Positions 9,639 to 47,545 of a stretch of 64,000 nt of DNA are shown here, piece by piece. Made by a program: the position numbers and the translations under genes. Positions within the stretch are counted from its first letter, which is position 1. Each line of letters opens with the position of its first letter. The notes under the pieces were generated by a model. It had not been told where the DNA came from, did no database searches, and saw only the letters and a program-made list of their open reading frames with translations. The stretch is from Patescibacteria group bacterium (GTDB lineage Bacteria > Patescibacteriota > Patescibacteriia > Magasanikbacterales > UBA922): positions 24,341 through 88,340 of the forward strand of contig JBAZIZ010000004.1 in the NCBI GenBank assembly GCA_041651535.1. Direction: 5' to 3'.

Positions 9639-10358
9639 TTATTTTGTTTCATTAACATTTTCTTCAACAGAATTTTCTACATTATTTACAGTTTCTGTTT
9701 TTTTATTATCTTTTCTTGGGTCTATTTTACCTTCATCTGTAAAAATATAAAGCAAAGAATTTCTTGCTCCTGGGACAGCTCCTTTTAAATAAATTTCGTT
9801 ATTGTTTAAATCAATTTTAACTACTTCTAAATTTTTTACAGTTACTTGAGCATCACCCATATGTCCGCCCATTCTCATACCTTTAAAAACTCTTTGTGGA
9901 CCAGTTGCTCCGATAGAACCAGGCATTCTTAATTGATCTTTATGACCATGTGTTGCTAAAGAACCAGAAAATCCATGTCTTTTAACGACACCTTGAAAAC
10001 CTTTTCCTTTACTCATTCCAGTAACTTGAACTTTTTCTCCAACAGAAAAAATTTCAGCCCCAAATATATCACCTTTTTTAAGATCATTATTATTTTTAAA
10101 TTCACGTAAAAAACGGACAGAATTATTTTTGTCCTCACTTAAATGAATATCTTTTAAATGTCCTTTTTGAGCTTGGTTAAATCTAAAAATTTTTTGACTG
10201 CCAAAACCCAATTGGACAGAATCATTATTGTCTTTTTCTTTTGTTTTTACTTGAGAAATAATGCAAGGGCCAGCCACAATTTTTGTGACAGGAACAACGG
10301 CTCCGTCTTCACGAAAAACCTGTGTCATTTCAATTTTTTTTCCGATGATAAATTTCAT
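9639..10358 (-). CDS. rplC: 50S ribosomal protein L3
   Basis: 239 aa, GKGFQGVVKRHGF motif. Confidence 0.92.
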   Translation of the reverse strand: MKFIIGKKIEMTQVFREDGAVVPVTKIVAGPCIISQVKTKEKDNNDSVQLGFGSQKIFRFNQAQKGHLKDIHLSEDKNNSVRFLREFKNNNDLKKGDIFGAEIFSVGEKVQVTGMSKGKGFQGVVKRHGFSGSLATHGHKDQLRMPGSIGATGPQRVFKGMRMGGHMGDAQVTVKNLEVVKIDLNNNEIYLKGAVPGARNSLLYIFTDEGKIDPRKDNKKTETVNNVENSVEENVNETK

Positions 10359-10395
10359 ATTTTTATAAACAATTTGTGTATAAATCTTCTAAACA

Positions 10396-10446
10396 AAAAA
10401 CTAGAAGTGAATATACAAAAAAAATAATATTCTCACTTCTAGCCTT
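10396..10446 (-). terminator. Hairpin (10-bp perfect stem CTAGAAGTGA/TCACTTCTAG, 22-nt loop) followed by a T-run on the minus strand, between rpsJ and rplC
   Basis: Inverted repeat read directly; the minus-strand RNA has the hairpin followed by UUUUUUGUUU. The long loop makes a classical terminator uncertain; an attenuator or leader structure is possible. Confidence 0.35.
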
Positions 10447-10594
10447 TAGCATTAATGGGTATAGGCTTTTTATTAAAAATTTATGTAATGAATTTTCTCC
10501 GACAGTTTTTTTTCTAACAAATGTTTTTCTCTTATTTTAGACAAGAAAATCTTATTTGTCTTTAAAAAAAATGTTTGATTTTTAATGTGAGATT

Positions 10595-10628
10595 ATTTTA
10601 TCTCAATTTTAACTTTTTGTCAATAGTA
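10595..10628 (-). promoter_or_regulatory. Sigma-70-like promoter (TTGACA-N17-TAAAAT) inside the rpsJ-rplC spacer
   Basis: Reverse complement of 10595-10628 reads TTGACAaaaagttaaaattgagaTAAAAT. Confidence 0.35.
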
Positions 10629-10662
10629 AATAACAAACAAATATCCACAACGCTTTTTTGTT

Positions 10663-10995
10663 TTAAATCATTTTGATTTCAACATCAACACCGCTAGGTA
10701 AATTTAAATTCATGAGAGCGTCAATAGCTTTTGGATTTGTTTCTAAAATATCAATTAGTCTTTTATGAGTTCTCATTTCGTATTGTTCTTGAGCTGTTTT
10801 ATGAACAAAAGTAGCTCTATTTACGCTAAATTTATTTATTGATGTTGGTAATGGTACTGGACCTAAAACTTTTGCGTTATTTCTTTCAGCTGTATCAATG
10901 ATAGTTTTGGTAGCTTCATCAATAATTTTATGATCATACGCTTTAATTTTTATGCGCATTTTTGGACCTTGTTCTTGTTTTTTATTTTCTGACAT
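10663..10995 (-). CDS. rpsJ: 30S ribosomal protein S10
   Basis: 110 aa, RIKIKAYDHKIIDEATKTIIDTA. Confidence 0.92.
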   Translation of the reverse strand: MSENKKQEQGPKMRIKIKAYDHKIIDEATKTIIDTAERNNAKVLGPVPLPTSINKFSVNRATFVHKTAQEQYEMRTHKRLIDILETNPKAIDALMNLNLPSGVDVEIKMI

Positions 10996-11070
10996 ATTTT
11001 AAATAATGAACTATTAAAAGATTTTTTTAATCCCGCCCTAGCAAAAGGACGGGATTAAATTATCTTTTTA

Positions 11071-12261
11071 TTAATTAATAATTTTTGTTACAACACCTGC
11101 ACCTACAGTTCTACCACCTTCACGGATAGCAAAACGCATTTGTTCTTCCATAGCTACTGGAACAATCAATTTTATTTTCAATTTTGCAGTATCTCCTGGC
11201 ATAACCATTTCTACTCCTTCAGGTAAAAATACTTCTCCAGTTACATCAGTTGTACGAATATAAAATTGAGGTTTATAACCATTAAAGAAAGGTTTGTGTC
11301 TTCCACCTTCTTCTTTTGTCAAAGCTACAACTTCAGCTTCAAATTCTGTATGAGGATGAATTGTGTTTGGTTTAGCTAAAACTTGACCACGTTCTACATC
11401 TTCTTTTTTTGTACCACGAAGTAAAATTCCAGCATTATCTCCAGCTTGTCCTTGACTTAAACTTTTGTTAAACATTTCAATACCAGTAACTGTTGTTTTT
11501 GAGGTTTCAGTTTTCATACCTACGATTTCAACTTCATCACCAATTTTAACAACTCCTCTTTCAATACGACCAGTTACTACAGTACCACGGCCTTCAATTG
11601 AAAATACATCTTCAATAGGTAATAAGAAATCTTTGTCTAAATCTCTTTTTGGTTCAGGAATATATTCGTCTAAAGCTTTTAATAATTCCATAATAGGAGC
11701 ACTAGCAGCTTCATCTTCTGGATTTTCTAAAGCTTTTAAAGCTGAACCACGGATAACAGGAGTTATATCTCCAGGGAATTCATATTTTTTTAATAAATCT
11801 TTTACTTCTTCTTCAACAAGGTCAATCAATTCTGGATCAGATACTTGATCTACTTTGTTTAAGAAAACTACGATATAAGGTACTCCTACTTGACGAGCTA
11901 ACAAAATATGTTCTCTAGTTTGAGGCATTGGACCGTCTGCAGCAGAAACAACAAGAATAGCTCCGTCCATTTGAGCGGCACCAGTAATCATGTTTTTTAC
12001 ATAATCAGCATGTCCTGGACAATCAACGTGTGCATAGTGACGTTTTTCAGTCTCATATTCAACGTGTGCTGTCGCAATAGTAATACCACGTTCTCTTTCT
12101 TCAGGTGCAGCGTCAATTTCATTTATATCTTTTTTTTGAGCAACTAAACCTTTAGCTGCAGCAACTTTCAAAATTGCTGCTGTGAGAGTAGTTTTACCAT
12201 GGTCTACGTGACCAATTGTTCCCACATTTACATGTGGTTTTGATCTTTGAAATTCTGCCAT
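11071..12261 (-). CDS. tuf: Elongation factor Tu
   Basis: 396 aa, [15 protein letters not shown]-loop, [12 protein letters not shown] motifs. Confidence 0.97.
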
Positions 12262-12413
12262 ATTATTATATGGTAGTTATGTTATACCGCACTATCCTGA
12301 ATGGTCAGATATAGTTTTTTATCCAACGGTGAATCTAAATTATTTTAAAAATTTTTTGTATAAAAAAATTTACAAAAAAATCACTTTTAAAATGACGAGA
12401 TAAATTATATTAA

Positions 12414-12442
12414 ATTTTTAAAAATAAGTCAAGAGGCAAAAC
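12414..12442 (-). promoter_or_regulatory. Promoter for tuf (TTGACT-N17-TATAAT)
   Basis: Minus-strand reading cTTGACTtatttttaaaaatttaaTATAAT, about 150 nt upstream of the tuf start. Confidence 0.45.
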
Positions 12443-12488
12443 AATTGTTTTCCCCAAATTAAAAACAGGTTAGCCCCTGTTTTTAATT

Positions 12489-13079
12489 TTATATTGGTTC
12501 TTCAAAAAAAATTGGTTCTTCATCGTCATTTTCATCTTCTTTTTTATCTTCAAAACTGCCAATAGTATCTTTTTCATCTTCTCGTTCAACAAAAGGTATA
12601 TTCCGTTTTTCACTATAATCTGTTTCATCTATCATTTTATCAATTTCAAATTCATTTTTATTTTGTTTTATTTCAAGCAGTTCATCAAGTTTTATTTCAC
12701 TACCATCTTTTTTTATGTTATTTTGTTTTTTTTCATTTAAAATTTCTGAGATACTATGCCATTCTTTTTTGAGAAATTCATTTTCAATATCAACAGCTTC
12801 TTCTTTTTGTTTTAATTCATCTTGTTTTGCTTTCCAAATAGCTATATCTTTATTTATTTTTTCGATCAATTGTTTTTCAGAAAGATTATTTTTTTTAATT
12901 AAATCAGAAACCCCACCATAATCTTTTAATTGTTCATCTATCTCTTCTTGAAATTCTACAATTTCTTCGTATTCTTTCCAATCAAGCAAAAGCATGTGTC
13001 TGCCTCCACATTTATCATAGATGAAAATTTTTCCATTTGTTTTTTGGGCTAATTTTAACAATCTATCAAAATCAGACAT
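12489..13079 (-). CDS. Hypothetical acidic coiled-coil protein (196 aa)
   Basis: Long ORF in AT-rich DNA between the 16S rRNA 3' end and tuf; Glu/Asp/Lys-rich; no family recognised. Confidence 0.55.
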   Translation of the reverse strand: MSDFDRLLKLAQKTNGKIFIYDKCGGRHMLLLDWKEYEEIVEFQEEIDEQLKDYGGVSDLIKKNNLSEKQLIEKINKDIAIWKAKQDELKQKEEAVDIENEFLKKEWHSISEILNEKKQNNIKKDGSEIKLDELLEIKQNKNEFEIDKMIDETDYSEKRNIPFVEREDEKDTIGSFEDKKEDENDDEEPIFFEEPI

Positions 13080-13302
13080 ATTTTTTTAAAAAAATTAAAA
13101 ATAAATTAAATACATTTTAACTTTTTTTTTATTTTAAGTCAAGAAAAAAAATAATAAAAAAAACTCCATTTTACAGGAGATTTTAATTCTTTACAACATG
13201 AACGTGACAAAAACACAATAAGAAATCGTTTAACTAAGCCTCATCCTGAATCATATTCAGAACAAGTCGACATTATTTTATCTTCCGATAAAATAACTCC
13301 AG

Positions 13303-14794
13303 AAAGGAGGTGATCCATCCACAGCTTCCGCTACGGATGCCTTGTTACGACTTCACCCTGATCACTGACCCTACCTTCGTCCCTCTAATGAGAGCCTTCG
13401 GGTATTGCCAACTTTCGTGGTGTGACGGGCGGTGAGTACAAGACCCGAGAACGTATTCAACGTGCCGTGTCTGATGCACGTTTACTAGCGATTCCAACTT
13501 CATGCAGACAAATTGCAGCCTGCAATCCGAACTGAGATCGGTTTTTTGGGATTAGCTCCACCTCGCGGTTTGGCAACCCTTTGTACCGACCATTGTATCA
13601 TGTGTGTAGCCCAAGACGTAAGAGCCATGCTGATTTGACGTCGTCCTCATCTTCCTCCTCCTTGCGGAGGCAGTCTCTTGTGTACATTTAACACAAGACG
13701 AGGGTTGCGCTCGTTACCCCACTTAAGGGTACACCTCACGGCACGAGCTGACGGCAACCATGCAGCACCTGTGTAGCGCCCTCGAAGGCGGCCCGATTTT
13801 CATCGGGCTTGCAGCTACATGTCAAGCCTTGGTAAGGTTCGCCGCGTATCATCGAATTAAACCACATGATCCACCGCTTGTGCGGGTCCCCGTCTATTCC
13901 TTTGAGTTTTAACCTTGCGGCCGTACTCCCCAGGCGGCGTACTTAACGCGTTAGCTTTTTAAAACGGCACTGGAAGGGTCGATACTTCCAATACCTAGTA
14001 CGCATTGTTTAGGGCGTGGACTACTGGGGTATCTAATCCCATTCGCTACCCACGCTTTGGTCCATGAGTGTCAGAGATGTCCTAGCACACTGCCTTCGCC
14101 TTTGGTGTTCCGGTTGATATCAACGCATTTTACTACTACACCAACCGTTCCGTGTGCCTCTTCCATCCTCTAGTCTAATAGTATCAACAGCAGTTTCCAA
14201 GTTAAGCCTGAAAATTTGACCATTGACTTATTAAACAACCTGCGGACGCTTTACGCCCAATGAATCCGGATAACGTTTGAGGTCTCTGTATTACCGCTGC
14301 TGCTGGCACAGAGTTAGCAACCTCTTATTCCTTAGGTACCGTCACAAATTCTTCCCTAAGAAAAGCAGTTTACGCCCCGAGGGGCTTCTTCCTGCACGCG
14401 GTGTCGCTCCATCACCCTTTCGGGCATTGTGGAATATTCTTGACTGCAGCCTCCCGTAGGAGTCTGGGCCGTATCTCAGTCCCAGTGAGCCGGGTCACGC
14501 TCTCACGCCCGGTACTGATCATTGCCTTGGTAAGCCATTACCTTACCAACTAGCTAATCAGACATAGGCCCCTCTCTAAGCACCGAAGTTTTACATAAGT
14601 AGATTTTCATCCCTTATGACTATCAGGTTTTAATTCATCTTTCGATGAGCTATTCCTGTCTTAGAGGTAGGTTACCAATGTGTTACTCTCCCGTTTGCCG
14701 CTCGTACCCTTTTAGCAAGCTAAAAGTACGTCGCTCGACTTGCATGCCTTAGACACACCGCCAACGTTCATCCTGAGCCAGGATCAAACTCTCA
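13303..14794 (-). rRNA. rrs: 16S ribosomal RNA (about 1.49 kb)
   Basis: The + strand carries the reverse complement of the 16S 3' end (AAAGGAGGTGATCCATCCACAGCTTCCGCTACGGATGCCTTGTTACGACTT, from 13303) and of the 5' end (GGATCAAACTCT at 14781-14792). Internal conserved blocks are also present (GTATTACCGCTGCTGCTGGCAC, GTACAAGACCCGAGAACGTATTCAACG). Confidence 0.95.
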
Positions 14795-15088
14795 ATTAAA
14801 TTGAGATTTTTTCTTGAAATTAATCAAGAATTGATCATCTTATTTCCTAAAGAAATAAGTTAAAAATTTTTGTTATTTAGAATAAACGATTCAATTTGGT
14901 TTTTGTCACATTTATATTGTAAAGTGCCGGTTTTCTTTTTATAAAAAAAGAGAAACCTGTTTCACACTTTAATTCAATGAAAATTAAAAGGTGAATTAGT
15001 TACTCTTTCCTTTTACTTAGTTTCCTTTTTAAAGGACTTTAGAAAAGTTTAAATTGTAATAAATTTATAATACTTTAACGTGAGCTTT

Positions 15089-15117
15089 ATGATATATAAA
15101 ATTGTTTTTTTTGTCAA
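15089..15117 (-). promoter_or_regulatory. Candidate rRNA promoter (TTGACA-N17-TATCAT), about 295 nt upstream of the 16S 5' end
   Basis: Minus-strand reading cTTGACAaaaaaaacaattttataTATCAT. Confidence 0.35.
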
Positions 15118-15215
15118 GTGATTTTTTATACACAACTTGGGGATAACTCTGGCAATTCAAAATTAAAAATTCAAAAGTCAAAAAATGATGAATAAAAATG
15201 GTCTTTTTTAACTTA

Positions 15216-15944
15216 TTATTTTCTAGAAAATACTAGTACAGCTGAATTAAATTCATTATTTTTAATATATTTTTTTTCTATTAAACTAAAATCATTTTTC
15301 AAAAATAAATCAATATAAAATTGTTCAGATCTCCGATAACCGGCTATGTTTCCAACATTTTTTATTTTAGTTGTATGAAGAAATTGTTTATATTTTTTAC
15401 CTTTAAAAACAAAGTCTTCTTGATTGATAAAATTATATTTTTTGTCATTCACTATTTCATTATTTTTTAGATCTAAATCTTTACTAATAACTAATATAAA
15501 TTTACCTTTCTTTTCTAACATTATCTTTATTTTTTTAATAATTTTTGAAAAATCTTTTACAACAAAATGAGGAAAAACATAAATTGCTGCTATGTAATTA
15601 AATTTATTTTTAAAACTAGTTTCCAAAAAAGATTTGTTAGAAATTTTTAATTTTATATTTTTAAATTTTGTTATTTTATTTTTAACAAATTTATAATTTT
15701 TTATTGCTGGTTCACATCCAGCTATAATATTTTTTTTAGAAAAATTATTTATTTTATTTTCTATTTTTTCAAAAAAATTTCCTGTTCCAAAACCTATATC
15801 AAAAATCTTTATATTTTCAATTTTATCCTTCAAAAAAATATTATCAATAATAAAATCCATGACTGAATAATTTATTTTATTATTTTTCTGTTTAATCCAA
15901 TTTAATTTATTATATTGTTCGTAAAAAAAATTACCATCTTTCAT
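15216..15944 (-). CDS. Class I SAM-dependent methyltransferase
   Basis: 242 aa; motif I DIGFGTGNF (D/ExGxGxG); sits between trmD and the 16S rRNA. Confidence 0.7.
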   Translation of the reverse strand: MKDGNFFYEQYNKLNWIKQKNNKINYSVMDFIIDNIFLKDKIENIKIFDIGFGTGNFFEKIENKINNFSKKNIIAGCEPAIKNYKFVKNKITKFKNIKLKISNKSFLETSFKNKFNYIAAIYVFPHFVVKDFSKIIKKIKIMLEKKGKFILVISKDLDLKNNEIVNDKKYNFINQEDFVFKGKKYKQFLHTTKIKNVGNIAGYRRSEQFYIDLFLKNDFSLIEKKYIKNNEFNSAVLVFSRK

Positions 15945-15947
15945 AAT

Positions 15948-16667
15948 TTATTTTTCATTATTTTCTCGCCATTCCTTTATCTTTTTATGATCTCCACTAA
16001 GTAAAACTTCTGGAACTTTTAACCCCAAAAAATTTTCTGGTTTTGTATATTGAGGATATTCTTTTTTTCCAATTTCATTATGACTTTCTTCCAACAAAGA
16101 TTCTTCATTCCCGAGCACTCCATTTATAAGTCTTGAAGTTGCTTCAATTATGATTAATGCCCCGAGTTCACCTCCAGCCAAAACAAAATCACCAACAGAA
16201 ATTTCTTCGTCAATCATATTATCAACTACTCTTTGATCTACACCTTCATAACGTCCACAAATCATTGTTAATTCATCAAGCCCAGAAAATTTTTCTGCCA
16301 TTTTTTGATCAAATTTTTTTCCCCGAGGAGATAATAAAATTGTTTTTTTCTTTTTCTTAATATCACCGTTAAAAATCTTTTTTATTTTATTTAATCCATT
16401 TGTTTTAGCAAAAGGAATTGCTCCAATTGATTTTAATGCCTCATAAATAGGTTCTGGTTTCATAAGCATTCCAGCTCCTCCACCGTAAATAGTATCATCA
16501 ACTTTATTATGTTTATTATTTGAAAAATCTCGAATATCAATCGTTTGTATTTTTATAAAATTATTTTTTTGAGCACGGCCAAGAATAGATTCGTCTGAAT
16601 AATTTTTTATTATATTTGGAAAAATTGTTAAAATATTAAAATTCATATATTTCATTTTTAAAATCAA
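15948..16667 (-). CDS. trmD: tRNA (guanine37-N1)-methyltransferase TrmD
   Basis: NFNILTIFPNII...RDFSNNKHNKVDDTIYGGGAGMLMKPEP is characteristic of TrmD; the true start is probably the internal Met at about 16646. Confidence 0.88.
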   Translation of the reverse strand: MILKMKYMNFNILTIFPNIIKNYSDESILGRAQKNNFIKIQTIDIRDFSNNKHNKVDDTIYGGGAGMLMKPEPIYEALKSIGAIPFAKTNGLNKIKKIFNGDIKKKKKTILLSPRGKKFDQKMAEKFSGLDELTMICGRYEGVDQRVVDNMIDEEISVGDFVLAGGELGALIIIEATSRLINGVLGNEESLLEESHNEIGKKEYPQYTKPENFLGLKVPEVLLSGDHKKIKEWRENNEK

Positions 16668-16758
16668 AATGAGTATATAAAATTAAAAATAAAAAGTCAA
16701 AATATTATCTAAACAAAAACAGACCTTTTTTATAAGATCTGTTTTTTTTTAAAAATGA

Positions 16759-18837
16759 TTATTTTTTTCTACCTTCCGCAATAGCTGCTTCTACATTTTT
16801 TGGACATTCAGAATATTTTTCAAATTCCATAGAATATGTAGCGCGACCTTGAGTCATAGAACGTAAAGATGTTGCATAACCAAACATACTAGCAAGTGGG
16901 ACTAAAGCTTTTACAACTTTTGAAGTTCCTCTATCAGTCATTTCTTCGATTTGTCCTCTTTTTGAAGATAAATCTCCAATAACATCACCCATATAATTTT
17001 CAGGTGTAACAACTTCAACTTTCATAATTGGTTCAAGTAAAACTGGATTAGCTTTTCTAACTGCTGCTTGGAAACCCATGCTAGCTGCTAATTTGAAAGC
17101 AATTTCTGATGAATCAACTTCATGGTAACTTCCATCAAAACAAGAAACTTTGATATCAAGTAAAGGATAGCCAGCGACAACACCTTTGTCCATAGCTTCT
17201 CTGACACCTTTTTGAATTGCTGGAATATATTCTCTAGGAACTACACCGCCTTTGATCTCATCGACAAATTCAAAACCAGTGCCTTGTTCTTTTGGTTCAA
17301 CTTTAAGCCAACAATGACCATATTGTCCACGACCACCAGATTGTTTAACATATTTTCCTTCAGCTTCAGCACTTTGTCTGATAGTTTCTTTGTATGCTAC
17401 TTGAGGAGCTCCAACTTGAGCAACTACACCAAATTCTCTTTTCATACGATCAACAATGATATCTAAATGTAATTCTCCCATTCCAGAAATAATTGTTTGA
17501 AGAGTTTCTTCATCTGTGTGTACTCTAAAGGTTGGGTCTTCTTCAGCTAATTTTTGTAATGCTAAACTCATTTTTTCAGCATCAGCTTTTGAGGCAGGTT
17601 CAATAGCAATATGAATAACTGGTTCAGGGAAAACCATTTTTTCTAAAACAACTGGTCTATTTTCCGCACAAATTGTATCTCCAGTTGTAGTTTCCTTCAA
17701 ACCAATAGCAGCTGCAATTTCTCCAGCATATACTTCATCTACTTCTTCACGATTATTAGCGTGCATTCTCACAATACGACCGATTCTTTCTTTTTTTCCG
17801 TTACTAGCATTCAAAACATAACTACCTGATTTTAAAATTCCAGAGTAAACTCTGAAAAAAGCTAATTTTCCAACAAAAGGATCAGTAGCAATTTTAAATG
17901 CTAAAGCTGTAAATGGTTCATTATCCGCAGCTTTAACTGTTATTCTTTTTTCTTCATCATCAGGATCATGAGCTTCAATATTTGGAATGTCTAATGGTGA
18001 TGGTAAATATTCAACAACTTTATCAAGCATTAATTGAACTCCAATATTTTGCAAAGCTGTTCCACATAAAACAGGATACATTTCATCTTTAACAACCAAC
18101 GTTCTGATACCTTTATTTATTTCTTCAATAGAAAATTCTTCACCACTTAAATATTTATTCATCAATTCATCACTAGCTTCAGCAATTTTTTCAACTAAAG
18201 AAGCACGGTATTCTTCAACTTTACTTTTCATATCTTCTGGAACAGGAATTTCAATAATATTTATTCCATGATCTCCTTCAAATTTGTAAGCTTTTCTATC
18301 AATAATATCAATTATTCCAGAAAATTCTGATTCTGAACCAATTGGTAATTGAATTGCAAAAGCGTTTGGAGATAAACGATCTTTAATTGAGTTCAAACTC
18401 ATAAAAAAGTCAGCTCCAGTTTTGTCCATTTTGTTTACAAAACAAAGACGAGGAACATTGTATTTATCAGCTTGTTTCCAAACTGTTTCAGATTGTGGTT
18501 CTACACCTTGTGATCCATCGAATACAGCACAAGCACCATCTAAAACACGGAGTGATCTTTCTACTTCAACAGTAAAATCAACGTGTCCTGGTGTATCAAT
18601 AATATTGATTCTGTGATTTTTCCAAAAACAAGTTGTAGCAGCAGAAGTTATAGTAATACCACGTTCTTTTTCTTGAGCCATCCAATCCATATCAGCTGCA
18701 CCATCATGAGTTTCACCGATTTTATGTTTTTTTCCAGTATAAAATAAGACACGTTCAGTTACTGTCGTTTTACCAGCATCAATGTGAGCCATGATACCTA
18801 TGTTTCTTATTTTCTCTAAAGGATAATCTCTACCCAT
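16759..18837 (-). CDS. fusA: Elongation factor G
   Basis: 692 aa, [10 protein letters not shown]-loop and full EF-G domain structure. Confidence 0.97.
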
Positions 18838-18862
18838 ATTTTTATTTAATTTATTAAATTAA

Positions 18863-19342
18863 TTATTTGCTGAAACGAGCAAAATGGGCAAAAGCTTTAT
18901 TAGCTTCAGCCATACGATGAACATCTTCTTTTTTCTTAAATGCTCCACCTGTTCCTTCTAAAGCATCAAGTAATTCAGCAGCTAATTTTTCTTTCATATC
19001 TTTTCCTTTTCTAGCTTTTGCAGCTAAAGTAACCCAACGAAAAGCTAAAGCATTTTGACGACTATTTGAAACTGGCATTGGAACTTGATAATTTGCTCCA
19101 CCAACACGACGAGATCTTACTTCTACTTGTGGTTTAATTACTTCTAAAGCATCTTCAAAAACTTTTAAAGCATTGGCTTTTTTCTTATCTGCTAAAACTT
19201 CCAAAGCACCATATACTATTTTTTGAGCAATGGATTTTTTTCCGTCTTCCATTATGAAATTTATAAATTTAGCCAACAATTCACTGTTGTAAATCGAATC
19301 CGGCGCAATAATGCGTTTTGGAGCTCTTTTTCCTCTTGGCAT
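18863..19342 (-). CDS. rpsG: 30S ribosomal protein S7
   Basis: 159 aa, conserved S7 sequence and position after S12. Confidence 0.93.
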   Translation of the reverse strand: MPRGKRAPKRIIAPDSIYNSELLAKFINFIMEDGKKSIAQKIVYGALEVLADKKKANALKVFEDALEVIKPQVEVRSRRVGGANYQVPMPVSNSRQNALAFRWVTLAAKARKGKDMKEKLAAELLDALEGTGGAFKKKEDVHRMAEANKAFAHFARFSK

Positions 19343-19370
19343 ATTTGTATTTTATTATTAAATTAATAAA

Positions 19371-19790
19371 TTATTTTTTTGGTCTCTTTGTTCCGTAAAC
19401 AGAACGACTTCTTTTTCGACCTTCTATACCTTGGGTATCATAAACACCACGTACAATATGATAACGAACACCTGGTAAATCTTTTACACGACCACCACGA
19501 ATAAGAACGATTGAATGTTCTTGTAAATTATGACCTTCACCTGGAATGTAAGCGATAACTTCTGTTCCATTTGAAAGACGAACTTTGGCAACTTTACGTA
19601 AAGCTGAGTTCGGTTTTTTTGGAGTAGCTGTATAAACTTTTGTACAAACTCCTCTTTTGAAAGGACAACCCCTTCTTAAATAAGTTTTCTCACGATGTAA
19701 ACTATCGTAAGTAAATTGCATAGCAGGAGAAGCAGATTTTGTTTTTTTGCTGATTCTTCCTTTACGCAATATTTGATTCATTGTAGGCAT
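19371..19790 (-). CDS. rpsL: 30S ribosomal protein S12
   Basis: 139 aa, [12 protein letters not shown]-terminus, [10 protein letters not shown] motif. Confidence 0.95.
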
Positions 19791-19984
19791 AGTTTTATGC
19801 TTAAAATTATGAATATTAAATAAATTAAAAATACCCTATAAGGGTACGCTCGGAAATTTTTTCTATTATGGCAAGAAAATTATTCCTAGCGTTAAATTTT
19901 ATCTTTATAAAAAATAAAATTTTTCTTCACCTTAATTTGATAAATTAAGATTACTCCGCTTTATGTTTTTAAAAGCTTTTCTAA

Positions 19985-20020
19985 TATACATTAAACAACA
20001 AAAAATGTCAAGGGATTAAA
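19985..20020 (-). promoter_or_regulatory. Promoter for the rpsL-rpsG-fusA cluster (TTGACA-N17-TATATT), about 200-nt leader
   Basis: Minus-strand reading cccTTGACAttttttgttgtttaatgTATATT. Confidence 0.35.
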
Positions 20021-40122: not shown

Positions 40123-43100
40123 TTATTCTTCTGTTTTTTCTTCTTTGCTTTCTATATTTTCTGCAAAAATTTCTTTTTCATTATTTTCTAATTCAGAAAT
40201 ACCTTTTACACCTGTACCAGCTGGGATTAGTCGTCCGATAATAACATTTTCTTTTAATCCTTCTAAATAATCCATTTTACCAGTTATAGCAGCATTTACT
40301 AGAACACGAGATGTCTCTTGGAAAGAAGCTGAAGATAAGAAACTTTGAGTAGATAAAGAAATTTTACTGATACCCATAAGCATATCTCGAGCTTTAGCCA
40401 ATTTTTTATTTTCTTTTTTAGCTTGTCTATTAGCAATAATTAATTGGGATCTTTCGACGATTTCTCCTGGAAGTAAATCAGTATCTCCTGGATCTTCGAC
40501 AAAGACACGACTAAACATTTGTTTAATTATAATTTCAATATGTTTATCATTTAATCTTTGACCTTGGGAAGCATAGATTTCTTGAATTTCTGTTAAAATA
40601 TATCTTTTAACAGCATCCATTCCTTTAAATTGGAATAATTCTTGCAAATCAACGGCTCCTTCTGTTAATTGATCGCCTTTTTCAATTACATCTCCATCTT
40701 TTACCCAAAGTTTATAACCTATAGGGATGATATATTCTTTGGTTGTTTTTCCATCATAATTCAAAATTATTTTTTCATCTGAAATTTCAATTGCACCATT
40801 GTATTCTGCTTTAATAATTTCTCCACTACCGCCACGAATCAAAAGTTTATCTCCTTTCTTAACTTTATCGCCAATAGCAACTTTTACATCATCTTCTTCA
40901 TTAATTTCAATTTCTATTCTTTCATCTCCTTCATGATGAACTTTGATTATTTTTTGGCCTCGACGACCTTCAAAAATTTTTCTACCTGTAGAATTTGTAA
41001 TTACTTTTCCATCAGCATCTTCAATTTCTATAACTCCGGAAACTTCAGACAAAATAGCTTTTCTTTTTGGAGTACGACATTCAAATAATTCTTCAACTCG
41101 AGGCAAACCTTGTGTAATATCAGCACTACTAGCAACACCTCCAGTATGGAAAGTTCTCATTGTCAATTGAGTACCAGGTTCACCAATAGATTGAGCAGCG
41201 ATTGTACCAACAGCAACTCCATTATCTACAACTTTTCTATTACCTAAATCAAAACCATAACATTTTGAACAAACTCCTTTTGGTAATTTACATTGAAGAA
41301 CTGAACGAACATGGATATTATCAATTTTTTCTTTTTCAATAATACGAGATGCTTTTTCGTCAATAACTTCTCCAGCTTTGACAATTATTTTTTTACCAAG
41401 TTTAACATCTTCCAAGACAAAACGTCCCAAAACTCTTTCTGAAAGTTTTTCACCCATTTGTTCTGATTGTTCTATTGTAAACATTTCTCCAACTGTATCA
41501 CCACAATCTTCTTCTTTTACAACAACTTCTTGCGCGACATCAACTAGACGACGAGTTAAATATCCAGCATTTGCTGTACGTAAAGCTGTATCTGACAAAC
41601 CTTTACGAGTACCATGAGATGAGATAAAAAATTCCAAAACTCCAAATCCTTCTTTAAAATTTCCTTTTACAGGAAGTTCTATAATATCACCACTAGGAGA
41701 AGCAACTAATCCTTTCATAGCAATAACTTGTCCAAGTTGTCCCCAAGAACCACGAGCTCCAGAATCAATCATCGCATAAACAGATTTATTATGATCTAAA
41801 ACTTCTTTAGATTTTGATAATAAAGCATCTTTTGTATTAGCCCAAATTTCAACTACTTTTGATTTTCTTTCTGAGTCAGTCAAAAGTCCTTCTTCATATT
41901 GTTTTTGTACAGTCTGTACTTCTTCATCGGCTTTAGCTAATAATTCATCTTTAATATCAATTGAAGGAAAATCATCTTTACCTAAAGAATAACCTGATTT
42001 TGTAACATATTTATAACCTAAATCTTTTATTTTATCTAGATGAACAGCGGTTATTTCTTGTCCATATAATTCAAGTAAAAGTTGAATTATATTGCTTAAA
42101 TGTTTTTTAGTTACAGTTTCATTATAATAAGGTAATTTATTAGGTAAAATTTCATTAAAGAAAATTCTACCGATACTAGTTTCAATTAAATTACTATGAC
42201 CTTCTTCAAATTTATCAAGATTATCAAATCGTACAATTATTTTTTCTTTTAAAGTAATTAAACGATCTTTATACGCATATTTTGCTTCCCGAATATTTGA
42301 AAAATATTTTGTGGCTTTTTTATCAACATCTTCTTCATTATATTTTGTCATGTAATAACAACCAAGTACGATATCTTGAGCTGGAGTAATCACTGGATTT
42401 CCAGTTGCTGGTTTTAACAAGTTTTTTTCTGAAGCCATCAAATTTTCTGCTTCCCATTTTGCTTGTTCTGATAAAGGTAAATGAACAGCCATTTGATCTC
42501 CATCAAAATCGGCATTAAACGCTGGACAAACTAGAGGATGCAAACGAATTGCTTTACCTTCAACTAAAACTGGTTTAAAAGCTTGGATACCAAGTCTGTG
42601 TAAGGTTGGAGCACGATTTAAAAGTACTCTGGTTTTTTTAGTTAAATTTTCTAATATATCCCAAACTTCAGGATCATTAGTTTCAATAAACCGACTAGCA
42701 CTACGAACATTATGTGCTAACTCTCTTTTAATAATTTCACTCATGACAAACGGTTTAAAAAGTTCCAAAGCAATTATTTTTGGCAAACCACATTCGTTAA
42801 TTTTTAATTTTGGACCAACAACGATTACTGAACGTCCAGAATAATCAACACGTTTTCCTAACAAATTTTGTCTGAAACGGCCTTGTTTTCCTTTTAAAAT
42901 ATCTGCAAGTGAGCGTAATTGTCTTTTTTGTCCAGTTGAAGCTTTTACAGTTTTACTAGCTCGAGCACTGTTATCAATCAAAGCATCAACAGCTTCTTGT
43001 AACATTCTTTTTTCATTACGACAAATTACTTCTGGAGCATTCAATTCTTTTAATCTTTTTAAACGATTATTTCTATTGATTACTCTTCGGTACAAATCAT

Positions 43101-44055
43101 TTAAATCAGAAGTAGCAAAACGACCACCATCTAAAGCAACCATTGGTCTTAAATCTGGTGGAATCACAGGAATATTTGTTAATATCATCCATTCTGGACG
43201 TATATCGTTTTTTGCTAAAGATTTTAAAAGTTTAATACGACGCATTATTCTTTCTCTTTTAGCACCTTTTGATTTTTTTAATAATTTTTCTAATTGTTTT
43301 ACAGTTTCGTCTAAATTTAATTTTTCCAAAAGATAACGAACCGCTTCAGCTCCGATACTAGCTTCAAATAAATGACTATAACGTAAAGATAATTCCTGAT
43401 ATCTCATTTCAGAAATTATATTCATCATAGAAATTTCATCGAGTTCATCGACTGCACTTTTATAATCTTCTTCTAAAGCAGATAATTTATTATTTTTTTC
43501 TTGTTCAATGTCTTTTTTATCTTTTGCATTTTCTATTTTTTTAGAATATTCATCTTCAATTTGTTTTTTCTTACTTTTATATTCTTTTTTCAAAAGTTCT
43601 ACAGTATTTTTCTTTTGTTCTTCATCAACTTTAGTAATTATAAAAGCAGCAAAATAAATAACTTTTTCTAAAGCTTGAATTGATAAATCTAAAACTAACC
43701 CAACACGAGAAGGAATGGTACGTAAAAACCAAATATGAGAAACTGGAGTTGCTAATTCTATATGTCCCATTCTTTCACGTCTAACTTGTGAATGAGTTAC
43801 TTCTACTCCACATTTATCACAGACAATACCTTTGTATCTAATTTTTTTATATTTTCCACAATAACATTCCCAATCTTTGGTAGGTCCAAAAATTTCTTCA
43901 GCAAAAAGTCCGCCTTTTTCTGGTTTTTGAGTACGATAATTTATCGTCTCAGGTTTGTGAACTTCTCCATAAGACCATTTTCTGATGATATCTGGTGAAG
44001 CGATTTTTAGTCGAATCGCATCAAAGTTCATTGAATGATGTAAGTCGCGTGCCAT
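40123..44055 (-). CDS. rpoC: DNA-directed RNA polymerase subunit beta'
   Basis: 1310 aa, NADFDGDQM catalytic motif and zinc-binding Cys clusters. Confidence 0.97.
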   Translation of the reverse strand: MARDLHHSMNFDAIRLKIASPDIIRKWSYGEVHKPETINYRTQKPEKGGLFAEEIFGPTKDWECYCGKYKKIRYKGIVCDKCGVEVTHSQVRRERMGHIELATPVSHIWFLRTIPSRVGLVLDLSIQALEKVIYFAAFIITKVDEEQKKNTVELLKKEYKSKKKQIEDEYSKKIENAKDKKDIEQEKNNKLSALEEDYKSAVDELDEISMMNIISEMRYQELSLRYSHLFEASIGAEAVRYLLEKLNLDETVKQLEKLLKKSKGAKRERIMRRIKLLKSLAKNDIRPEWMILTNIPVIPPDLRPMVALDGGRFATSDLNDLYRRVINRNNRLKRLKELNAPEVICRNEKRMLQEAVDALIDNSARASKTVKASTGQKRQLRSLADILKGKQGRFRQNLLGKRVDYSGRSVIVVGPKLKINECGLPKIIALELFKPFVMSEIIKRELAHNVRSASRFIETNDPEVWDILENLTKKTRVLLNRAPTLHRLGIQAFKPVLVEGKAIRLHPLVCPAFNADFDGDQMAVHLPLSEQAKWEAENLMASEKNLLKPATGNPVITPAQDIVLGCYYMTKYNEEDVDKKATKYFSNIREAKYAYKDRLITLKEKIIVRFDNLDKFEEGHSNLIETSIGRIFFNEILPNKLPYYNETVTKKHLSNIIQLLLELYGQEITAVHLDKIKDLGYKYVTKSGYSLGKDDFPSIDIKDELLAKADEEVQTVQKQYEEGLLTDSERKSKVVEIWANTKDALLSKSKEVLDHNKSVYAMIDSGARGSWGQLGQVIAMKGLVASPSGDIIELPVKGNFKEGFGVLEFFISSHGTRKGLSDTALRTANAGYLTRRLVDVAQEVVVKEEDCGDTVGEMFTIEQSEQMGEKLSERVLGRFVLEDVKLGKKIIVKAGEVIDEKASRIIEKEKIDNIHVRSVLQCKLPKGVCSKCYGFDLGNRKVVDNGVAVGTIAAQSIGEPGTQLTMRTFHTGGVASSADITQGLPRVEELFECRTPKRKAILSEVSGVIEIEDADGKVITNSTGRKIFEGRRGQKIIKVHHEGDERIEIEINEEDDVKVAIGDKVKKGDKLLIRGGSGEIIKAEYNGAIEISDEKIILNYDGKTTKEYIIPIGYKLWVKDGDVIEKGDQLTEGAVDLQELFQFKGMDAVKRYILTEIQEIYASQGQRLNDKHIEIIIKQMFSRVFVEDPGDTDLLPGEIVERSQLIIANRQAKKENKKLAKARDMLMGISKISLSTQSFLSSASFQETSRVLVNAAITGKMDYLEGLKENVIIGRLIPAGTGVKGISELENNEKEIFAENIESKEEKTEE

Positions 44056-44092
44056 ATAATATTTATTTTATTTTATTTATTTTATTAAATTT

Positions 44093-47000: not shown

Positions 47001-47545
47001 CAAAGTACATTATTTTGATCAGTTTCTATTTCTATCCAAGCACCTCGATTTGGAATAATTTTAGCTCCATAAAATCTTCTGCCACGGACAGTTTCATCAG
47101 TAAAAAATGCTCCAGCACTTCTAATTAATTGAGAAACGACAACTCTTTCAATACCGTTAATTACAAAAGTACCTCTGCTAGTCATTAAAGGAACATCACC
47201 TAAATAAATTTCTTGTTTTTCTGTTTTACCAGTTCTTTTATTTGTTAATCTAACATTAACCCGTAATGGTGCTTCATAAGTAATATTTTTGTTACGACAC
47301 ATCACTTCATCAAATTTTGCCTCATCTAAATAATATTCTTCAAAATATAATTCTAAATCTCTGCCAGTAAAATCAATAACTGGAGAAATTTCATCAAAAA
47401 TTTCTCTTAAACCTTCTTTGAAAAACCAATCATAAGATGATTGCTGTACTTCTATTAAATTAGGAACTTCTATTACATCTCTTACTGAAGTAAAAAATTT
47501 TCGCTCTAAGGTCTTCAGAGCTTGTCTTTTGTAAACTGGAGCCAT
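44093..47545 (-). CDS. rpoB: DNA-directed RNA polymerase subunit beta
   Basis: 1150 aa, conserved beta-subunit sequence throughout. Confidence 0.97.
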   Translation of the reverse strand: MAPVYKRQALKTLERKFFTSVRDVIEVPNLIEVQQSSYDWFFKEGLREIFDEISPVIDFTGRDLELYFEEYYLDEAKFDEVMCRNKNITYEAPLRVNVRLTNKRTGKTEKQEIYLGDVPLMTSRGTFVINGIERVVVSQLIRSAGAFFTDETVRGRRFYGAKIIPNRGAWIEIETDQNNVLWIKVDRKRKVAATSLLKAFGVSDNEEIKKIFADVNNHPHIDFIEETLKKDVASNEDEGLIEVYRRIRPGDLATADNAKSLIHSMFFNFDRYDLGKVGVYKFNTKFKIGLKEEDFDNKEQRVLSPEKLIQVLKEVIRLNVTQEEADDIDHLGNRRIRGVGELVQNRFRIGMARMERIVKDRMSTIDLESISPSKLINARPVISVIREFFMSSQLSQFMDQVNPLAELEHKRRISALGPGGLSRDRAGFEVRDVHKTHYGRICPIATPEGPNIGLVNHLSSFAKVNQFGFIETPYRKVLNLVQNNEKFTEGEIAGETIKNIVKKGEKITADIAKKIAKECKEKEIKIKPRVSNEVVYLNSFEEERTITASATTPIDEKGYFIDERISARVHGEAQVTEVENICYVDVASNQILSVATSIIPFLEHDDATRALMGTNMQRQSVPCIMPEPPLVGTGMEKAAAFNSGYVIPAPADGIVTYVDGSKIEFTDKKGKTYNYNIGKYVRSNASSCLNQRPCVELNQKLKKGDPMTDGPSIKDGELALGQNVLVAYMVWDGFNYEDAVIISDRLVRKDRYTSIHIEDYKIDVRETKLGEEVITNDIPNVGEEKLRNLDSEGIVRIGAEVHSGDILVGKITPKGETELTPEERLLRAIFGEKARDVRDSSMYLEHGEKGKVIDIKVFSAEAGDKLQPGVMKQVQVTVADMRKIQVGDKMAGRHGNKGVISKVVPSEDMPFLEDGTPVDIILSPLGVVSRMNLGQILENHLGLAANALGYKVATPVLNGITEKQIEEELKKAGFSTDGQLQLFDGRTGEAYDNKTTVGYSYMLKLNHMVEDKIHQRSIGPYSLITQQPLGGKAQFGGQRFGEMEVWALQAYGAAHTLQEILTIKSDDVPGRAKAYEAIIKGEPINKINLPESFNVLIREMKGLALDVELMKKMEEEQYTPVEEVSQVREMGPKHYGNAVENSRQRENDEE

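Follow-up and report, generated by a model that had tools for sequence, protein, structure and literature searches.

In E. coli, as in the canonical bacterial arrangement, the str operon rpsL-rpsG-fusA-tufA leads into the S10 operon. In the locus described here, from Candidatus Magasanikbacteria and relatives (Patescibacteria), a group of ultra-small uncultured bacteria, a full-length 16S rRNA gene lies inside this cluster. Is the rRNA transcribed together with the mRNAs of translation factors and ribosomal proteins, or does it form a unit of its own? We analysed the surrounding stretch of 64 kb (the window). The order on its minus strand is rpsL, rpsG, fusA, trmD, a class-I methyltransferase gene, 16S rRNA, ORF196, tuf and rpsJ, and about 4.5 kb separate the stop of fusA from the start of tuf. 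Every element named in an initial annotation is present, in position and strand, by profile matches to Pfam, NCBIfam and Rfam or, for ORF196, by family alignments:

16759..19790, minus strand: rpsL (19371-19790), rpsG (18863-19342) and fusA (16759-18837), Pfam and NCBIfam equivalog matches above cut-off
15948..16667, minus strand: trmD, tRNA (m1G37) methyltransferase, NCBIfam TrmD equivalog (280 bits, cut-off 220)
15216..15944, minus strand: class-I SAM methyltransferase of 242 aa, generic methyltransferase Pfam matches only
13303..14799, minus strand: full-length 16S rRNA, Rfam RF00177 SSU_rRNA_bacteria (1444 bits, model 1-1533, no insertions)
12489..13079, minus strand: ORF196, 196 aa, from family alignments and an AF2 model
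11071..12261, minus strand: tuf (EF-Tu), NCBIfam EF-Tu (702-722 bits)
10663..10995, minus strand: rpsJ (S10), opening gene of the S10 cluster, NCBIfam and Pfam matches

The true start of trmD is probably the ATG at 16655. After rpsJ comes rplC (9639-10358); rpoBC is detached from the str cluster, 20 kb upstream, and neither rpsP nor khpA was found anywhere in the 64 kb. RNA searches of the window returned no 23S, 5S or tRNA, and its 16S gene is the sole one, as first annotated: the stretch free of 23S extends over 13 kb on its 3′ side and 49 kb on its 5′ side.

The str cluster is indeed split, and related genomes share the split. The closest GTDB relatives (L014-L017), one of which (L016, OZ246405.1) is a complete chromosome, have the order rpsL-rpsG-fusA-trmD-16S-ORF-tuf-rpsJ-rplC. 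The core trmD-16S-ORF-tuf-rpsJ is found again in dozens of MAG and metagenome contigs that are independent of one another; most bear the label Candidatus Magasanikbacteria, and their 16S genes are only 83-91% identical to that of the window. Among metagenome loci anchored on the ORF, tuf lies downstream in 31 of 35, 16S upstream in 39 of 46, trmD upstream of 16S in 18 of 21 and fusA upstream of trmD in 6 of 12; as related loci were fetched with trmD or ORF196 as bait, such frequencies favour genomes carrying those genes. Short Logan contigs repeat the succession of 16S end, trailer, hairpin, promoter, ORF, promoter and tuf, and the 16S-ORF gaps of related loci contain no 23S, 5S or tRNA. A contiguous str cluster with 16S elsewhere is not the arrangement of these genomes: 16S between fusA and tuf is a conserved, lineage-specific gene order.

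Outgroup Magasanikbacteria have the order SMC-rpsP-khpA-(x)-trmD-16S-tRNA-tRNA; no 23S lies within 7.5 kb. Because these other Magasanikbacteria keep rpsP-khpA in front of trmD and 16S, the trmD-16S adjacency, to judge by gene order, predates the link to fusA. The evolutionarily stable core runs from trmD through 16S, the ORF196 family and tuf to rpsJ, and its upstream partner varies: fusA in the sub-lineage of the window, rpsP-khpA in others. The trmD-16S and 16S-ORF spacers measure about 0.2 to 5 kb and hold unrelated genes; they may serve as landing sites for accessory genes, the methyltransferase being an example.

In our reading, given a probability of roughly 0.75, the region is not one operon but a conserved series of separate transcription units, all in the same orientation, one of them a stand-alone 16S. 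This reading draws on gene identities, synteny in independent assemblies, covariation in each of two RNA helices and conserved promoter- and terminator-like sites, from which we infer that the sites are functional and the units independently expressed. The promoters and terminators are all sequence predictions, and AT-rich consensus matches are common in a genome of 28% GC: the region holds 71 sigma-70 consensus matches for 48.7 expected. The predicted signals are, in the direction of transcription:

19983..20011, minus strand: predicted rpsL-rpsG-fusA promoter, TTGACA-17-TATATT, 11/12 sigma-70 consensus match, intergenic
16708..16756, minus strand: intrinsic terminator 3′ of fusA, with A-tract, 13-bp stem and U-run
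16672..16700, minus strand: predicted trmD promoter, TTGACT-17-TATACT, 10/12 match, after the fusA terminator and before the trmD start
15089..15117, minus strand: predicted 16S promoter, TTGACA-17-TATCAT, 11/12 match
14946..14956, minus strand: pyrimidine-rich leader element GGUUUCUCUUUUUU, boxA-like in position, conserved across 16S leaders
14899..14924, minus strand: 5′ (leader) strand of the 16S processing helix, from leader/trailer cofolding, pairing continuing to about 14878
13189..13214, minus strand: 3′ (trailer) strand of the same helix, from the same cofolding, pairing continuing to about 13237
13156..13179, minus strand: weak post-16S hairpin (CUCC/GGAG) with U8 at the 16S terminator position, from folding and conserved position in relatives
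13114..13142, minus strand: predicted ORF196 promoter, TTGACT-17-TAAAAT, 10/12 match
12456..12489, minus strand: intrinsic terminator 3′ of ORF196, MFE -16.1 kcal/mol, z = -5.6
12404..12432, minus strand: predicted tuf promoter, TTGACT-17-TATAAT, 11/12 match
12286..12330, minus strand: structured RNA motif in the tuf 5′ UTR, from covariation across loci
11026..11059, minus strand: strong tuf-rpsJ hairpin, MFE -22.1 kcal/mol, z = -6.0

The first unit would comprise rpsL-rpsG-fusA, with a leader of about 190 nt between its predicted promoter and rpsL, closed by the strong fusA terminator (MFE -16.2 kcal/mol, z = -5.0; none of 200 shuffles equally stable). The second would be trmD, carrying a recently gained methyltransferase gene as a passenger: since only 3 nt separate the two, they are probably co-transcribed.

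The third unit would be the lone 16S; its predicted sigma-70 promoter is close to consensus, and its leader, some 290 nt long, contains the pyrimidine-rich element. That promoter is placed about 290-320 nt ahead of the mature 5′ end. A match of at least 10/12 is found upstream of 16S in 31 of 38 related loci, compared with 0.036 per 300 nt in coding sequence, and its -35 is an exact TTGACA in all but one of them (L103: TTAACA). The GGUUUCUCUUUUUU element occurs in 24 of 34 distinct 16S leaders and in 9 of 600 control segments; by resemblance to boxA it may act in antitermination.

Leader and trailer pair in a 26-bp helix that encloses 16S alone. Across 21 loci it is 91.8% paired, against 35-51% with the partner slid, a value inflated in the central 12 bp, not in the flanks, by a 12-nt motif search through which the loci were picked. 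This selection cannot generate compensatory changes, which are present at 16 of the 26 pairs; the helix was matched by 0 of 500 shuffles. The z-scores of the duplex have a median of -3.6 across loci, with -6.0 in the window. It is the kind of rRNA-precursor substrate that RNase III cuts, and by analogy this enzyme would process it. A terminator would end the unit: a hairpin and U-run directly follow the trailer helix in 22 of 23 relatives (controls: 46/400, 11.5%), and the feature is kept in L007 and L012. The window’s own version is weak or degenerate (-6.3 kcal/mol, z = -0.9).

The fourth unit would consist of the gene of a small acidic Phd/YefM-like protein, ORF196, between a promoter of its own and a strong terminator. 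In 44 of 47 loci a promoter match of at least 10/12 is placed 51-94 nt (in one case 171) upstream of the family’s gene. The protein is indeed acidic and helical, as first described (pI 4.55; 55 D+E, 33 K+R; long helices in the AlphaFold model). Its family counts 177 cluster representatives at E<=1e-3, and its gene is almost always just upstream of tuf. Those members that carry a name are listed as ‘hypothetical protein’, most of them from Magasanikbacteria; the protein family is real, unannotated and centred on this group. The architecture combines a Phd/YefM-like N-terminal domain, an acidic helical or disordered middle and an invariant C-terminal tail, D/E-E-P-I/V-F-F/Y-E-E-P (EEPIFFEEP). 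With type II antitoxins of the Phd/YefM type (PF02604), the N-terminal ~50 residues share a helix-strand-strand-helix pattern: 34 of 50 members match PF02604 at E<=1 (best 3.3e-5), all below threshold, no member of the window’s sub-family reaching the Pfam gathering score, and Foldseek matches to YefM are weak (42 columns, rmsd 2.6-2.8). Unlike these antitoxins, ORF196-family proteins are twice as long, carry the acidic region and the invariant tail, and have no adjacent toxin gene; the downstream gene is tuf.

The fifth unit would be tuf, which has a predicted promoter to itself and a structured 5′ UTR; the S10 cluster comes next. In 44 of 44 loci a tuf promoter is predicted between -127 and -221, and in 39 of them the match is 11/12 or better. 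The 5′ UTR motif has a P1 stem CCGC/GCGG, an internal loop UGGAUUACAAA, a variable P2 and a CCAC/CCAU loop. Over 37 loci its 14 pairs are 92.7% paired, falling to 30-49% when slid, and compensatory changes affect 9 pairs, with 0 of 500 shuffles matching; a search of Rfam gave no match even at E<=10. The hairpin between tuf and rpsJ could be either a terminator or an attenuator; its termination efficiency is uncertain because its tail opens with A residues.

The best-placed alternative is a partially mixed operon: transcripts from the trmD promoter would cross the methyltransferase gene into the 16S leader, 16S transcripts would pass the weak hairpin into ORF196, and the mRNAs would be freed by processing at the leader-trailer helix. 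The genes are all co-oriented, and no terminator was found from the methyltransferase stop (15216) to the 16S promoter (z = -0.3); because of this, and of the weak hairpin after 16S, local read-through is possible from trmD and the methyltransferase gene into 16S, and from 16S into ORF196. Weak terminators would be bypassed if the conserved boxA-like element acts in antitermination of the rRNA type. A precedent exists in the E. coli thrU-tyrU-glyT-thrT-tufB operon, where stable-RNA genes are co-transcribed with tuf. However, ORF196 has its own conserved promoter, nearly all relatives have a proper hairpin and U-run right after the trailer helix, and spacers of such variable size and content argue against a selected co-transcript. 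Read-through would also add little to the rRNA output of a near-consensus promoter. We consider a partially mixed operon unlikely, if worth keeping in mind.

A different question is whether the methyltransferase serves specifically to modify rRNA or tRNA, functionally tied to trmD and 16S, as its neighbours had first suggested. Its closeness to trmD fits this idea, and Trm9 and an mRNA cap methyltransferase figure among its many fold neighbours. Yet the gene is missing from all 137 related loci (80 + 57), and its GC of 17.0% is the lowest among the window’s 59 ORFs (z = -3.1). Homologues with 38-48% identity sit in unrelated contexts: beside GluRS on a Nanoarchaeota-labelled contig, with DndB or miscellaneous genes, and beside PHP/PNPase genes. 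Methyltransf_11 is its sole methyltransferase Pfam match above cut-off (23.2 bits, cut-off 21.2), and Pfam and NCBIfam searches gave no RsmG/RsmD/RlmN-type match. The AF2 model (pLDDT 85.9) has ToxA, XrdM, MtfA, TylM1 and GNMT as top fold matches, and the best sequence and fold matches are small-molecule methyltransferases, including histamine NMT and CFA synthase. Neither the sequence nor the modelled fold points to an RNA substrate, and an rRNA or tRNA enzyme is quite improbable here. The gene is a genome-specific insertion in the variable trmD-16S spacer, probably a recently acquired passenger.

As to transcription, the initial annotation had proposed either one unit mixing rRNA with factor and ribosomal-protein mRNAs or a tight series of units; the second wording is the fitting one, the first is not supported. 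A single long unit from rpsL to fusA, trmD, 16S, ORF196, tuf and the S10 genes would suit tightly packed genes on one strand. It is very hard to reconcile with the strong terminators after fusA and ORF196, with the promoters of 16S, ORF196 and tuf, each conserved independently and in position, with a covarying helix that brackets 16S alone and, in nearly all relatives, is followed by a terminator, and with the lineage-dependent partner of trmD, fusA or rpsP-khpA. A mixed rRNA/mRNA operon is probably not the case for this 16S. That assembly or binning misjoined 16S into this MAG’s str cluster is scarcely credible: 16S genes are classic points of metagenome mis-assembly and several short contigs end exactly inside 16S, but both junctions recur in the same gene order in dozens of assemblies made independently in different projects, at the 16S divergence given above, among them the complete chromosome and contigs of 100-900 kb, and leader and trailer covary across loci, which is impossible for a chimeric join.

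With the canonical str and S10 operons of E. coli, the locus shares genes, order and orientation, tuf standing directly before rpsJ, rplC and the following genes. It differs by the ~4.5 kb between fusA and tuf, occupied by a terminator, trmD, the methyltransferase gene, the 16S unit and an extra protein gene, by the own promoter and structured leader of tuf, and by the detached rpoBC. The usual setting of trmD is the rpsP-(khpA)-rimM-trmD-rplS operon. The window’s trmD is orthologous (NCBIfam equivalog) and rpsP-khpA still precede it in outgroup Magasanikbacteria and most other loci, whereas here fusA comes before trmD, and 16S after it, where rplS would normally be.

As in the E. coli tufB operon, a stable-RNA gene lies upstream of tuf on the same strand, but it is 16S rRNA instead of tRNAs. 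Co-transcription of 16S with tuf is unlikely, because the two are separated by a protein gene with a strong terminator and by a promoter dedicated to tuf. In Rickettsia prowazekii, the str operon is reportedly split, with fus apart from tuf, and 16S unlinked from 23S-5S, as Syvanen et al. 1996 and Andersson et al. 1995 are said to have described. That would likewise be a reduced genome with both operons broken; its two rearrangements, however, are at different places, whereas the lone 16S of the window fills the fusA-tuf gap, in an order conserved across a deep clade.

According to Brewer et al. (bioRxiv 10.1101/705046), who call a gene unlinked when more than 1500 bp lie between it and the 23S, unlinked rRNA genes are common in Patescibacteria, Rickettsiales and Deinococcus-Thermus, among others. 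The text of that paper has 0 occurrences of tuf, and a text search likewise found no genomic address for a lone 16S. The 16S of the window is similarly full-length and free of 23S in the whole 64 kb; in its lineage, by comparison, it has a specific address that is conserved, within the ribosomal-protein supercluster between trmD and tuf, and comparative analysis documents the promoter, processing helix and terminator of the lone gene. Altogether, unlinked rRNA genes and rearranged str operons are known themes, and this locus is a variant of both.

The str cluster is split in the window, which belongs to a 28% GC Patescibacteria MAG contig of 147,906 bp. The gene order described in the initial annotation holds up in the ORF list and in Pfam/NCBIfam and Rfam searches: trmD, a class-I methyltransferase gene, a 16S rRNA gene and an acidic 196-aa ORF (ORF196, NCBI locus tag WC414_02735) lie between rpsL-rpsG-fusA and tuf.

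Features of the split str cluster, in order of transcription
19371-19790, minus strand, rpsL (ORF list, Pfam/NCBIfam)
18863-19342, minus strand, rpsG (ORF list, Pfam/NCBIfam)
16759-18837, minus strand, fusA (ORF list, Pfam/NCBIfam)
15948-16667, minus strand, trmD (ORF list, Pfam/NCBIfam)
15216-15944, minus strand, class-I methyltransferase, 242 aa (ORF list, Pfam/NCBIfam)
15117-15089, minus strand, predicted 16S promoter TTGACA-17-TATCAT (sigma-70-like match)
13303-14799, minus strand, 16S rRNA, full-length, without insertions (Rfam, 1444 bits)
12489-13079, minus strand, ORF196, acidic, 196 aa, pI 4.55 (ORF list)
12330-12286, minus strand, structured, covarying RNA motif of the tuf 5' UTR (alignment of 37 distinct loci)
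11071-12261, minus strand, tuf (ORF list, Pfam/NCBIfam)
10663-10995, minus strand, rpsJ (ORF list, Pfam/NCBIfam)

The SSU rRNA is the only rRNA that Rfam recognizes across the whole 64 kb; no 23S, 5S or tRNA was found there. The rpoB-rpoC genes occupy positions 40123-47545, about 20 kb upstream of rpsL, with unrelated genes (GroEL, release factor, ArgRS, RecO and others) in between at 19791-40122; the rif-str linkage is therefore broken too.

The same order recurs in related Patescibacteria. In a TrmD search of genomes, one for each GTDB species, we found trmD followed by 16S in all four closest relatives: L014 (Candidatus Magasanikbacteria UBA922), L015, L016 (a complete 1.23-Mb chromosome) and L017. 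The genes rpsL-rpsG-fusA precede trmD in L015-L017 (the L014 sequence begins at trmD), and the ORF196 homologue and/or tuf-rpsJ-rplC follow 16S in L014, L015 and L017 (the L016 sequence ends within 16S). Across all trmD loci with enough downstream sequence, a same-strand 16S gene, confirmed by Rfam, lies downstream in 11 of 73. Homologues of ORF196 were initially only three, all on short contigs that carry the 16S 3' end, trailer, hairpin, promoter, ORF, promoter and tuf as in the window; an exhaustive profile search extended the family to 177 cluster representatives. With this family as bait, JGI metagenomes yielded 57 loci, in which tuf is downstream of the ORF in 31 of 35 testable cases, same-strand 16S upstream of it in 39/46, trmD upstream of 16S in 18/21 and fusA upstream of trmD in 6/12. 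Related 16S genes are 83-91% identical to that of the window; given these identities and the many independent assemblies carrying the order, it has been kept over deep divergence. An assembly chimera, the caveat attached to the initial annotation, is ruled out by this recurrence in independent loci and by the leader-trailer covariation of the 16S gene. The arrangement is genuine, and it is conserved as a clade-specific trait.

Several relatives depart from it. Other Magasanikbacteria (L021 and L037; also L018-L020 and L069) have SMC-rpsP-khpA-(x)-trmD-16S; in L021 and L037, 16S is followed by two tRNAs without 23S, and no 23S occurs within 7.5 kb of the L037 16S gene. Loci L108 (1095-6853) and L109 read SMC-rpsP-khpA-ORF-tuf, without trmD or 16S. 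In L151 (4613-6149), a tyrosine recombinase/integrase is directly upstream of ORF-tuf and 16S is missing there, and in L152 (2560-9488) a 6-kb block of opposite-strand genes separates the ORF from tuf. The stable core is therefore trmD, 16S, the ORF196 family, tuf and rpsJ, and the fusA-trmD junction of the window is one variant among several arrangements. Spacers range across loci from 51 to 2172 nt for fusA-trmD, 294 to 5333 nt for trmD-16S, 195 to 5166 nt for 16S-ORF and 142 to 3012 nt for ORF-tuf; they behave as insertion sites. Where relatives have 2-5 kb between 16S and the ORF, Rfam recognizes no 23S, 5S or tRNA in the gap, as a disrupted full rrn operon would have left.

The methyltransferase ORF (15216-15944, minus strand; METHYLTRANSFERASE) occupies one such variable spacer and is incidental to the gene order. 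It is absent from all 137 related loci, and its GC content of 17.0% is the lowest of 59 ORFs (z = -3.1). Its 24 homologues, at 38-48% identity, are found in unrelated contexts; none of the contexts checked links them to rRNA or trmD. The closest (L001-L006) include a Nanoarchaeota-labelled (DPANN) protein, which suggests either that ultra-small bacteria and archaea have exchanged the gene or that a contig was mis-binned. Profile matches are generic only (Methyltransf_11/12/23/25 and CMAS), and a BioC match reaches 19 bits against a cut-off of 185. Matches to PDB profiles are with ToxA/XrdM, MM_2633, histamine NMT (HNMT) and CFA synthase (CFAS). The confident AF2 model (pLDDT 85.9, pTM 0.88) has small-molecule methyltransferases as its best fold matches; Trm9 and an mRNA cap enzyme match at the same generic level only. 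The rRNA- or tRNA-modifying role first proposed for this enzyme thus finds neither a family-specific profile match (RsmG, RsmD, RlmN and similar) nor a conserved genomic association with rRNA or tRNA-modification genes. An RNA substrate is possible but has no support; a passenger gene, acquired recently and probably co-transcribed with trmD, is the best reading. At this locus, neighbouring genes are a poor guide to function.

The best minus-strand sigma-70-like matches are all intergenic: 20011 (rpsL), 16700 (trmD), 15117 (16S), 13142 (ORF196) and 12432 (tuf). In related loci, where we required a sigma-70-like match of at least 10/12, a predicted promoter lies upstream of 16S in 31 of 38 loci (with exact TTGACA in all but L103, which has TTAACA), upstream of the ORF in 44 of 47 (at 51-94 nt, one at 171) and upstream of tuf in 44 of 44 (at 127-221 nt; at least 11/12 in 39), compared with a control rate of 0.036 such matches per 300 nt of coding sequence. 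Strong hairpins with a U-run follow fusA (-16.2 kcal/mol, z = -5.0) and ORF196 (-16.1 kcal/mol, z = -5.6). The tuf-rpsJ hairpin is very stable (-22.1 kcal/mol), and since its tail starts with A residues it may be an attenuator.

The reading best supported by these predicted signals is a tandem array of autonomous units, which would include a self-contained, unlinked 16S gene, and not a mixed rRNA/mRNA operon. Limited read-through is possible at two weak boundaries. From the methyltransferase gene into 16S, no terminator is predicted between the methyltransferase stop and the 16S promoter (z = -0.3). From 16S into ORF196, the post-16S hairpin of the window is degenerate (CUCC/GGAG with U8, z = -0.9), but 22 of 23 relatives have a hairpin and U-run 10-25 nt past the trailer strand (62 nt in L125), against 11.5% of control segments. 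A single primary transcript spanning 16S and the neighbouring protein genes, as the initial annotation suggested, is argued against for fusA and tuf by the predicted terminators after fusA and ORF196 and by the conserved predicted promoter of tuf.

A predicted 11/12 sigma-70 match (10623-10595, minus strand) falls in the rpsJ-rplC spacer of about 300 nt (10359-10662), and a gap of 0.25-0.95 kb recurs at this place in loci reaching rplC; The spacer may thus contain a leader, or S10 may be expressed separately from the remaining genes of its cluster. The rpsL leader of about 190 nt (19791-19982, minus strand) contains a terminator-like hairpin, GUACCCUUAUAGGGUAU, with a U-run (19831-19847, minus strand) about 40 nt before the start codon, possibly an attenuator or r-protein leader.

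The tandem-array reading is also consistent with the flanks of the 16S gene itself. A 16S gene counts as unlinked when no 23S lies within 1.5 kb (Brewer et al., bioRxiv 10.1101/705046); in the window, a full-length 16S has no 23S within that distance by Rfam over 64 kb, and it has its own predicted promoter. Its leader (14924-14878) pairs with its trailer (13237-13189) in a helix that encloses no gene but 16S; a processing stem would be expected to do so if pre-16S RNA is made independently. As z-scores of the leader-trailer duplex are crude (whole-flank duplexes, mononucleotide shuffles), we relied on the covariation count instead. In 21 distinct loci, 91.8% of cells of the 26-bp core are paired, compared with 35-51% with a slid partner; the loci were chosen with a 12-nt motif, which favours central pairing but neither the flanks nor compensatory substitutions. 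Compensatory changes occur in 16 of the 26 pairs, and none of 500 shuffles matched these values.

An element, GGUUUCUCUUUUUUCUUU, is present in 24 of 34 16S leaders against 9 of 600 controls, and in the window at 14946-14956. It is boxA-like in position; any function is one we infer. In many leaders a purine-rich stretch complementary to it, AGAAAAGAGCAACU, comes just before, and a hairpin of the two would resemble the boxB/boxA region that serves antitermination in rrn leaders.

Some related 16S genes exceed the usual 1.5 kb (L135, 1803 nt; L120, 1616 nt; L125, 1588 nt; L136, 1560 nt; L052, 2587 nt) and align to the window 16S as two pieces. CPR rRNA genes are known to carry insertions or introns, and the longer genes are consistent with either; the window 16S has none.

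The structured motif in the tuf 5' UTR sits about 25 nt upstream of the start codon, at homologous positions in L014 and L094-L150. Its order is CCGC-UGGAUUACAAA-stem-CCAC loop-stem-GCGG: P1 pairs CCGC with GCGG, the internal loop UGGAUUACAAA is invariant, P2 varies, and the loop reads CCAC/CCAU. Over 37 loci, 92.7% of cells are paired, compared with 30-49% when slid; nine pairs have compensatory changes, and none of 500 shuffles did as well. Rfam returned only noise for the tuf leader and the 16S trailer, whether the window was searched at gathering thresholds or positions 12200-13320 at E<=10. The motif may be a new cis-regulatory RNA that acts on EF-Tu. Base pairing is possible between two invariant triplets, UGG in the internal loop and CCA in the hairpin loop, and in some loci the AUG start lies within a small CCAUA/UAUGG hairpin.

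ORF196 represents a real, conserved, unannotated protein family; nearly every named member is recorded as 'hypothetical protein [Candidatus Magasanikbacteria]'. With 177 members that share conserved motifs, it is not a spurious reading frame of a degenerate spacer. The N-terminal domain, FDRLLxLAQKTGDxLIVHDxxGRDMVIMDVDEYE, is predicted by AF2 as helix-strand-strand-helix; acidic helices with the conserved motifs DKINRDIAVWR, DWHxAGxVL and IPF are present, and the C-terminus is invariant (D/E-E-P-I/V-F-F/Y-E-E-P). Sub-threshold matches to PF02604 (Phd/YefM) occur in 34 of 50 members at E<=1 (best 3.3e-5); two distant members carry a precomputed PF02604, and the window ORF196 itself has no match. 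A PDB sequence search with the family profile gave nothing meaningful, and Foldseek on the AF2 model gave non-significant YefM and MarR matches (E ~2). Unlike a Phd/YefM type II antitoxin, which has an adjacent cognate toxin (Doc, YoeB or similar), the family has no toxin gene next to it: in 31 of 35 loci tuf comes next, beyond a predicted terminator and promoter. The most economical guess is a DNA-binding or partner-binding regulator.

It is conceivable, if improbable, that the trmD-16S-ORF196-tuf core is a regulatory module in which ORF196 and the tuf-leader RNA adjust how much EF-Tu is made to the output of 16S rRNA and ribosomes. The core would then be more than a frozen rearrangement, and the tuning would act in minimal cells. 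ORF196 would contribute its DNA-binding-type N-domain and the invariant EEPIFFEEP tail as a partner-binding segment; the leader RNA would contribute its invariant UGG and CCA, for which a pseudoknot or tRNA-end mimicry is conceivable. If true, the two would make up a new circuit by which a translation factor regulates itself. Two uncharacterised conserved elements beside tuf, an acidic Phd/YefM-like protein family and a covarying 5' UTR RNA, are candidate EF-Tu regulators. The gene order is also a clade-specific synteny marker, which helps to tie 16S sequences to MAGs because flanking single-copy marker genes survive binning, and it offers a natural case for the expression and processing of unlinked rRNA genes.

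Unlinked 16S and 23S genes are common in Patescibacteria and already documented (bioRxiv 10.1101/705046); a location of 16S next to tuf is not discussed there, and in the literature we found no description of 16S inside a str cluster or of a Magasanikbacteria rRNA operon. The only 16S gene of one deep Candidate Phyla Radiation branch has a fixed address in a supercluster of ribosomal-protein and elongation-factor genes, yet would be an autonomous unit. Unlike trmD of the rpsP-rimM-trmD-rplS operon, that of the window is flanked by fusA upstream and by the methyltransferase gene and 16S downstream; an explicit search for S16 (rpsP) and KhpA gave no matches in the window. The canonical str order rpsL, rpsG, fusA, tuf is preserved on one strand, but fusA and tuf are neither adjacent nor, by prediction, co-transcribed: four elements, about 4.5 kb, intervene, with predicted terminators after fusA and ORF196 and tuf's own predicted promoter. 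The gene order combines known phenomena, unlinked rRNA genes and a rearranged str operon.
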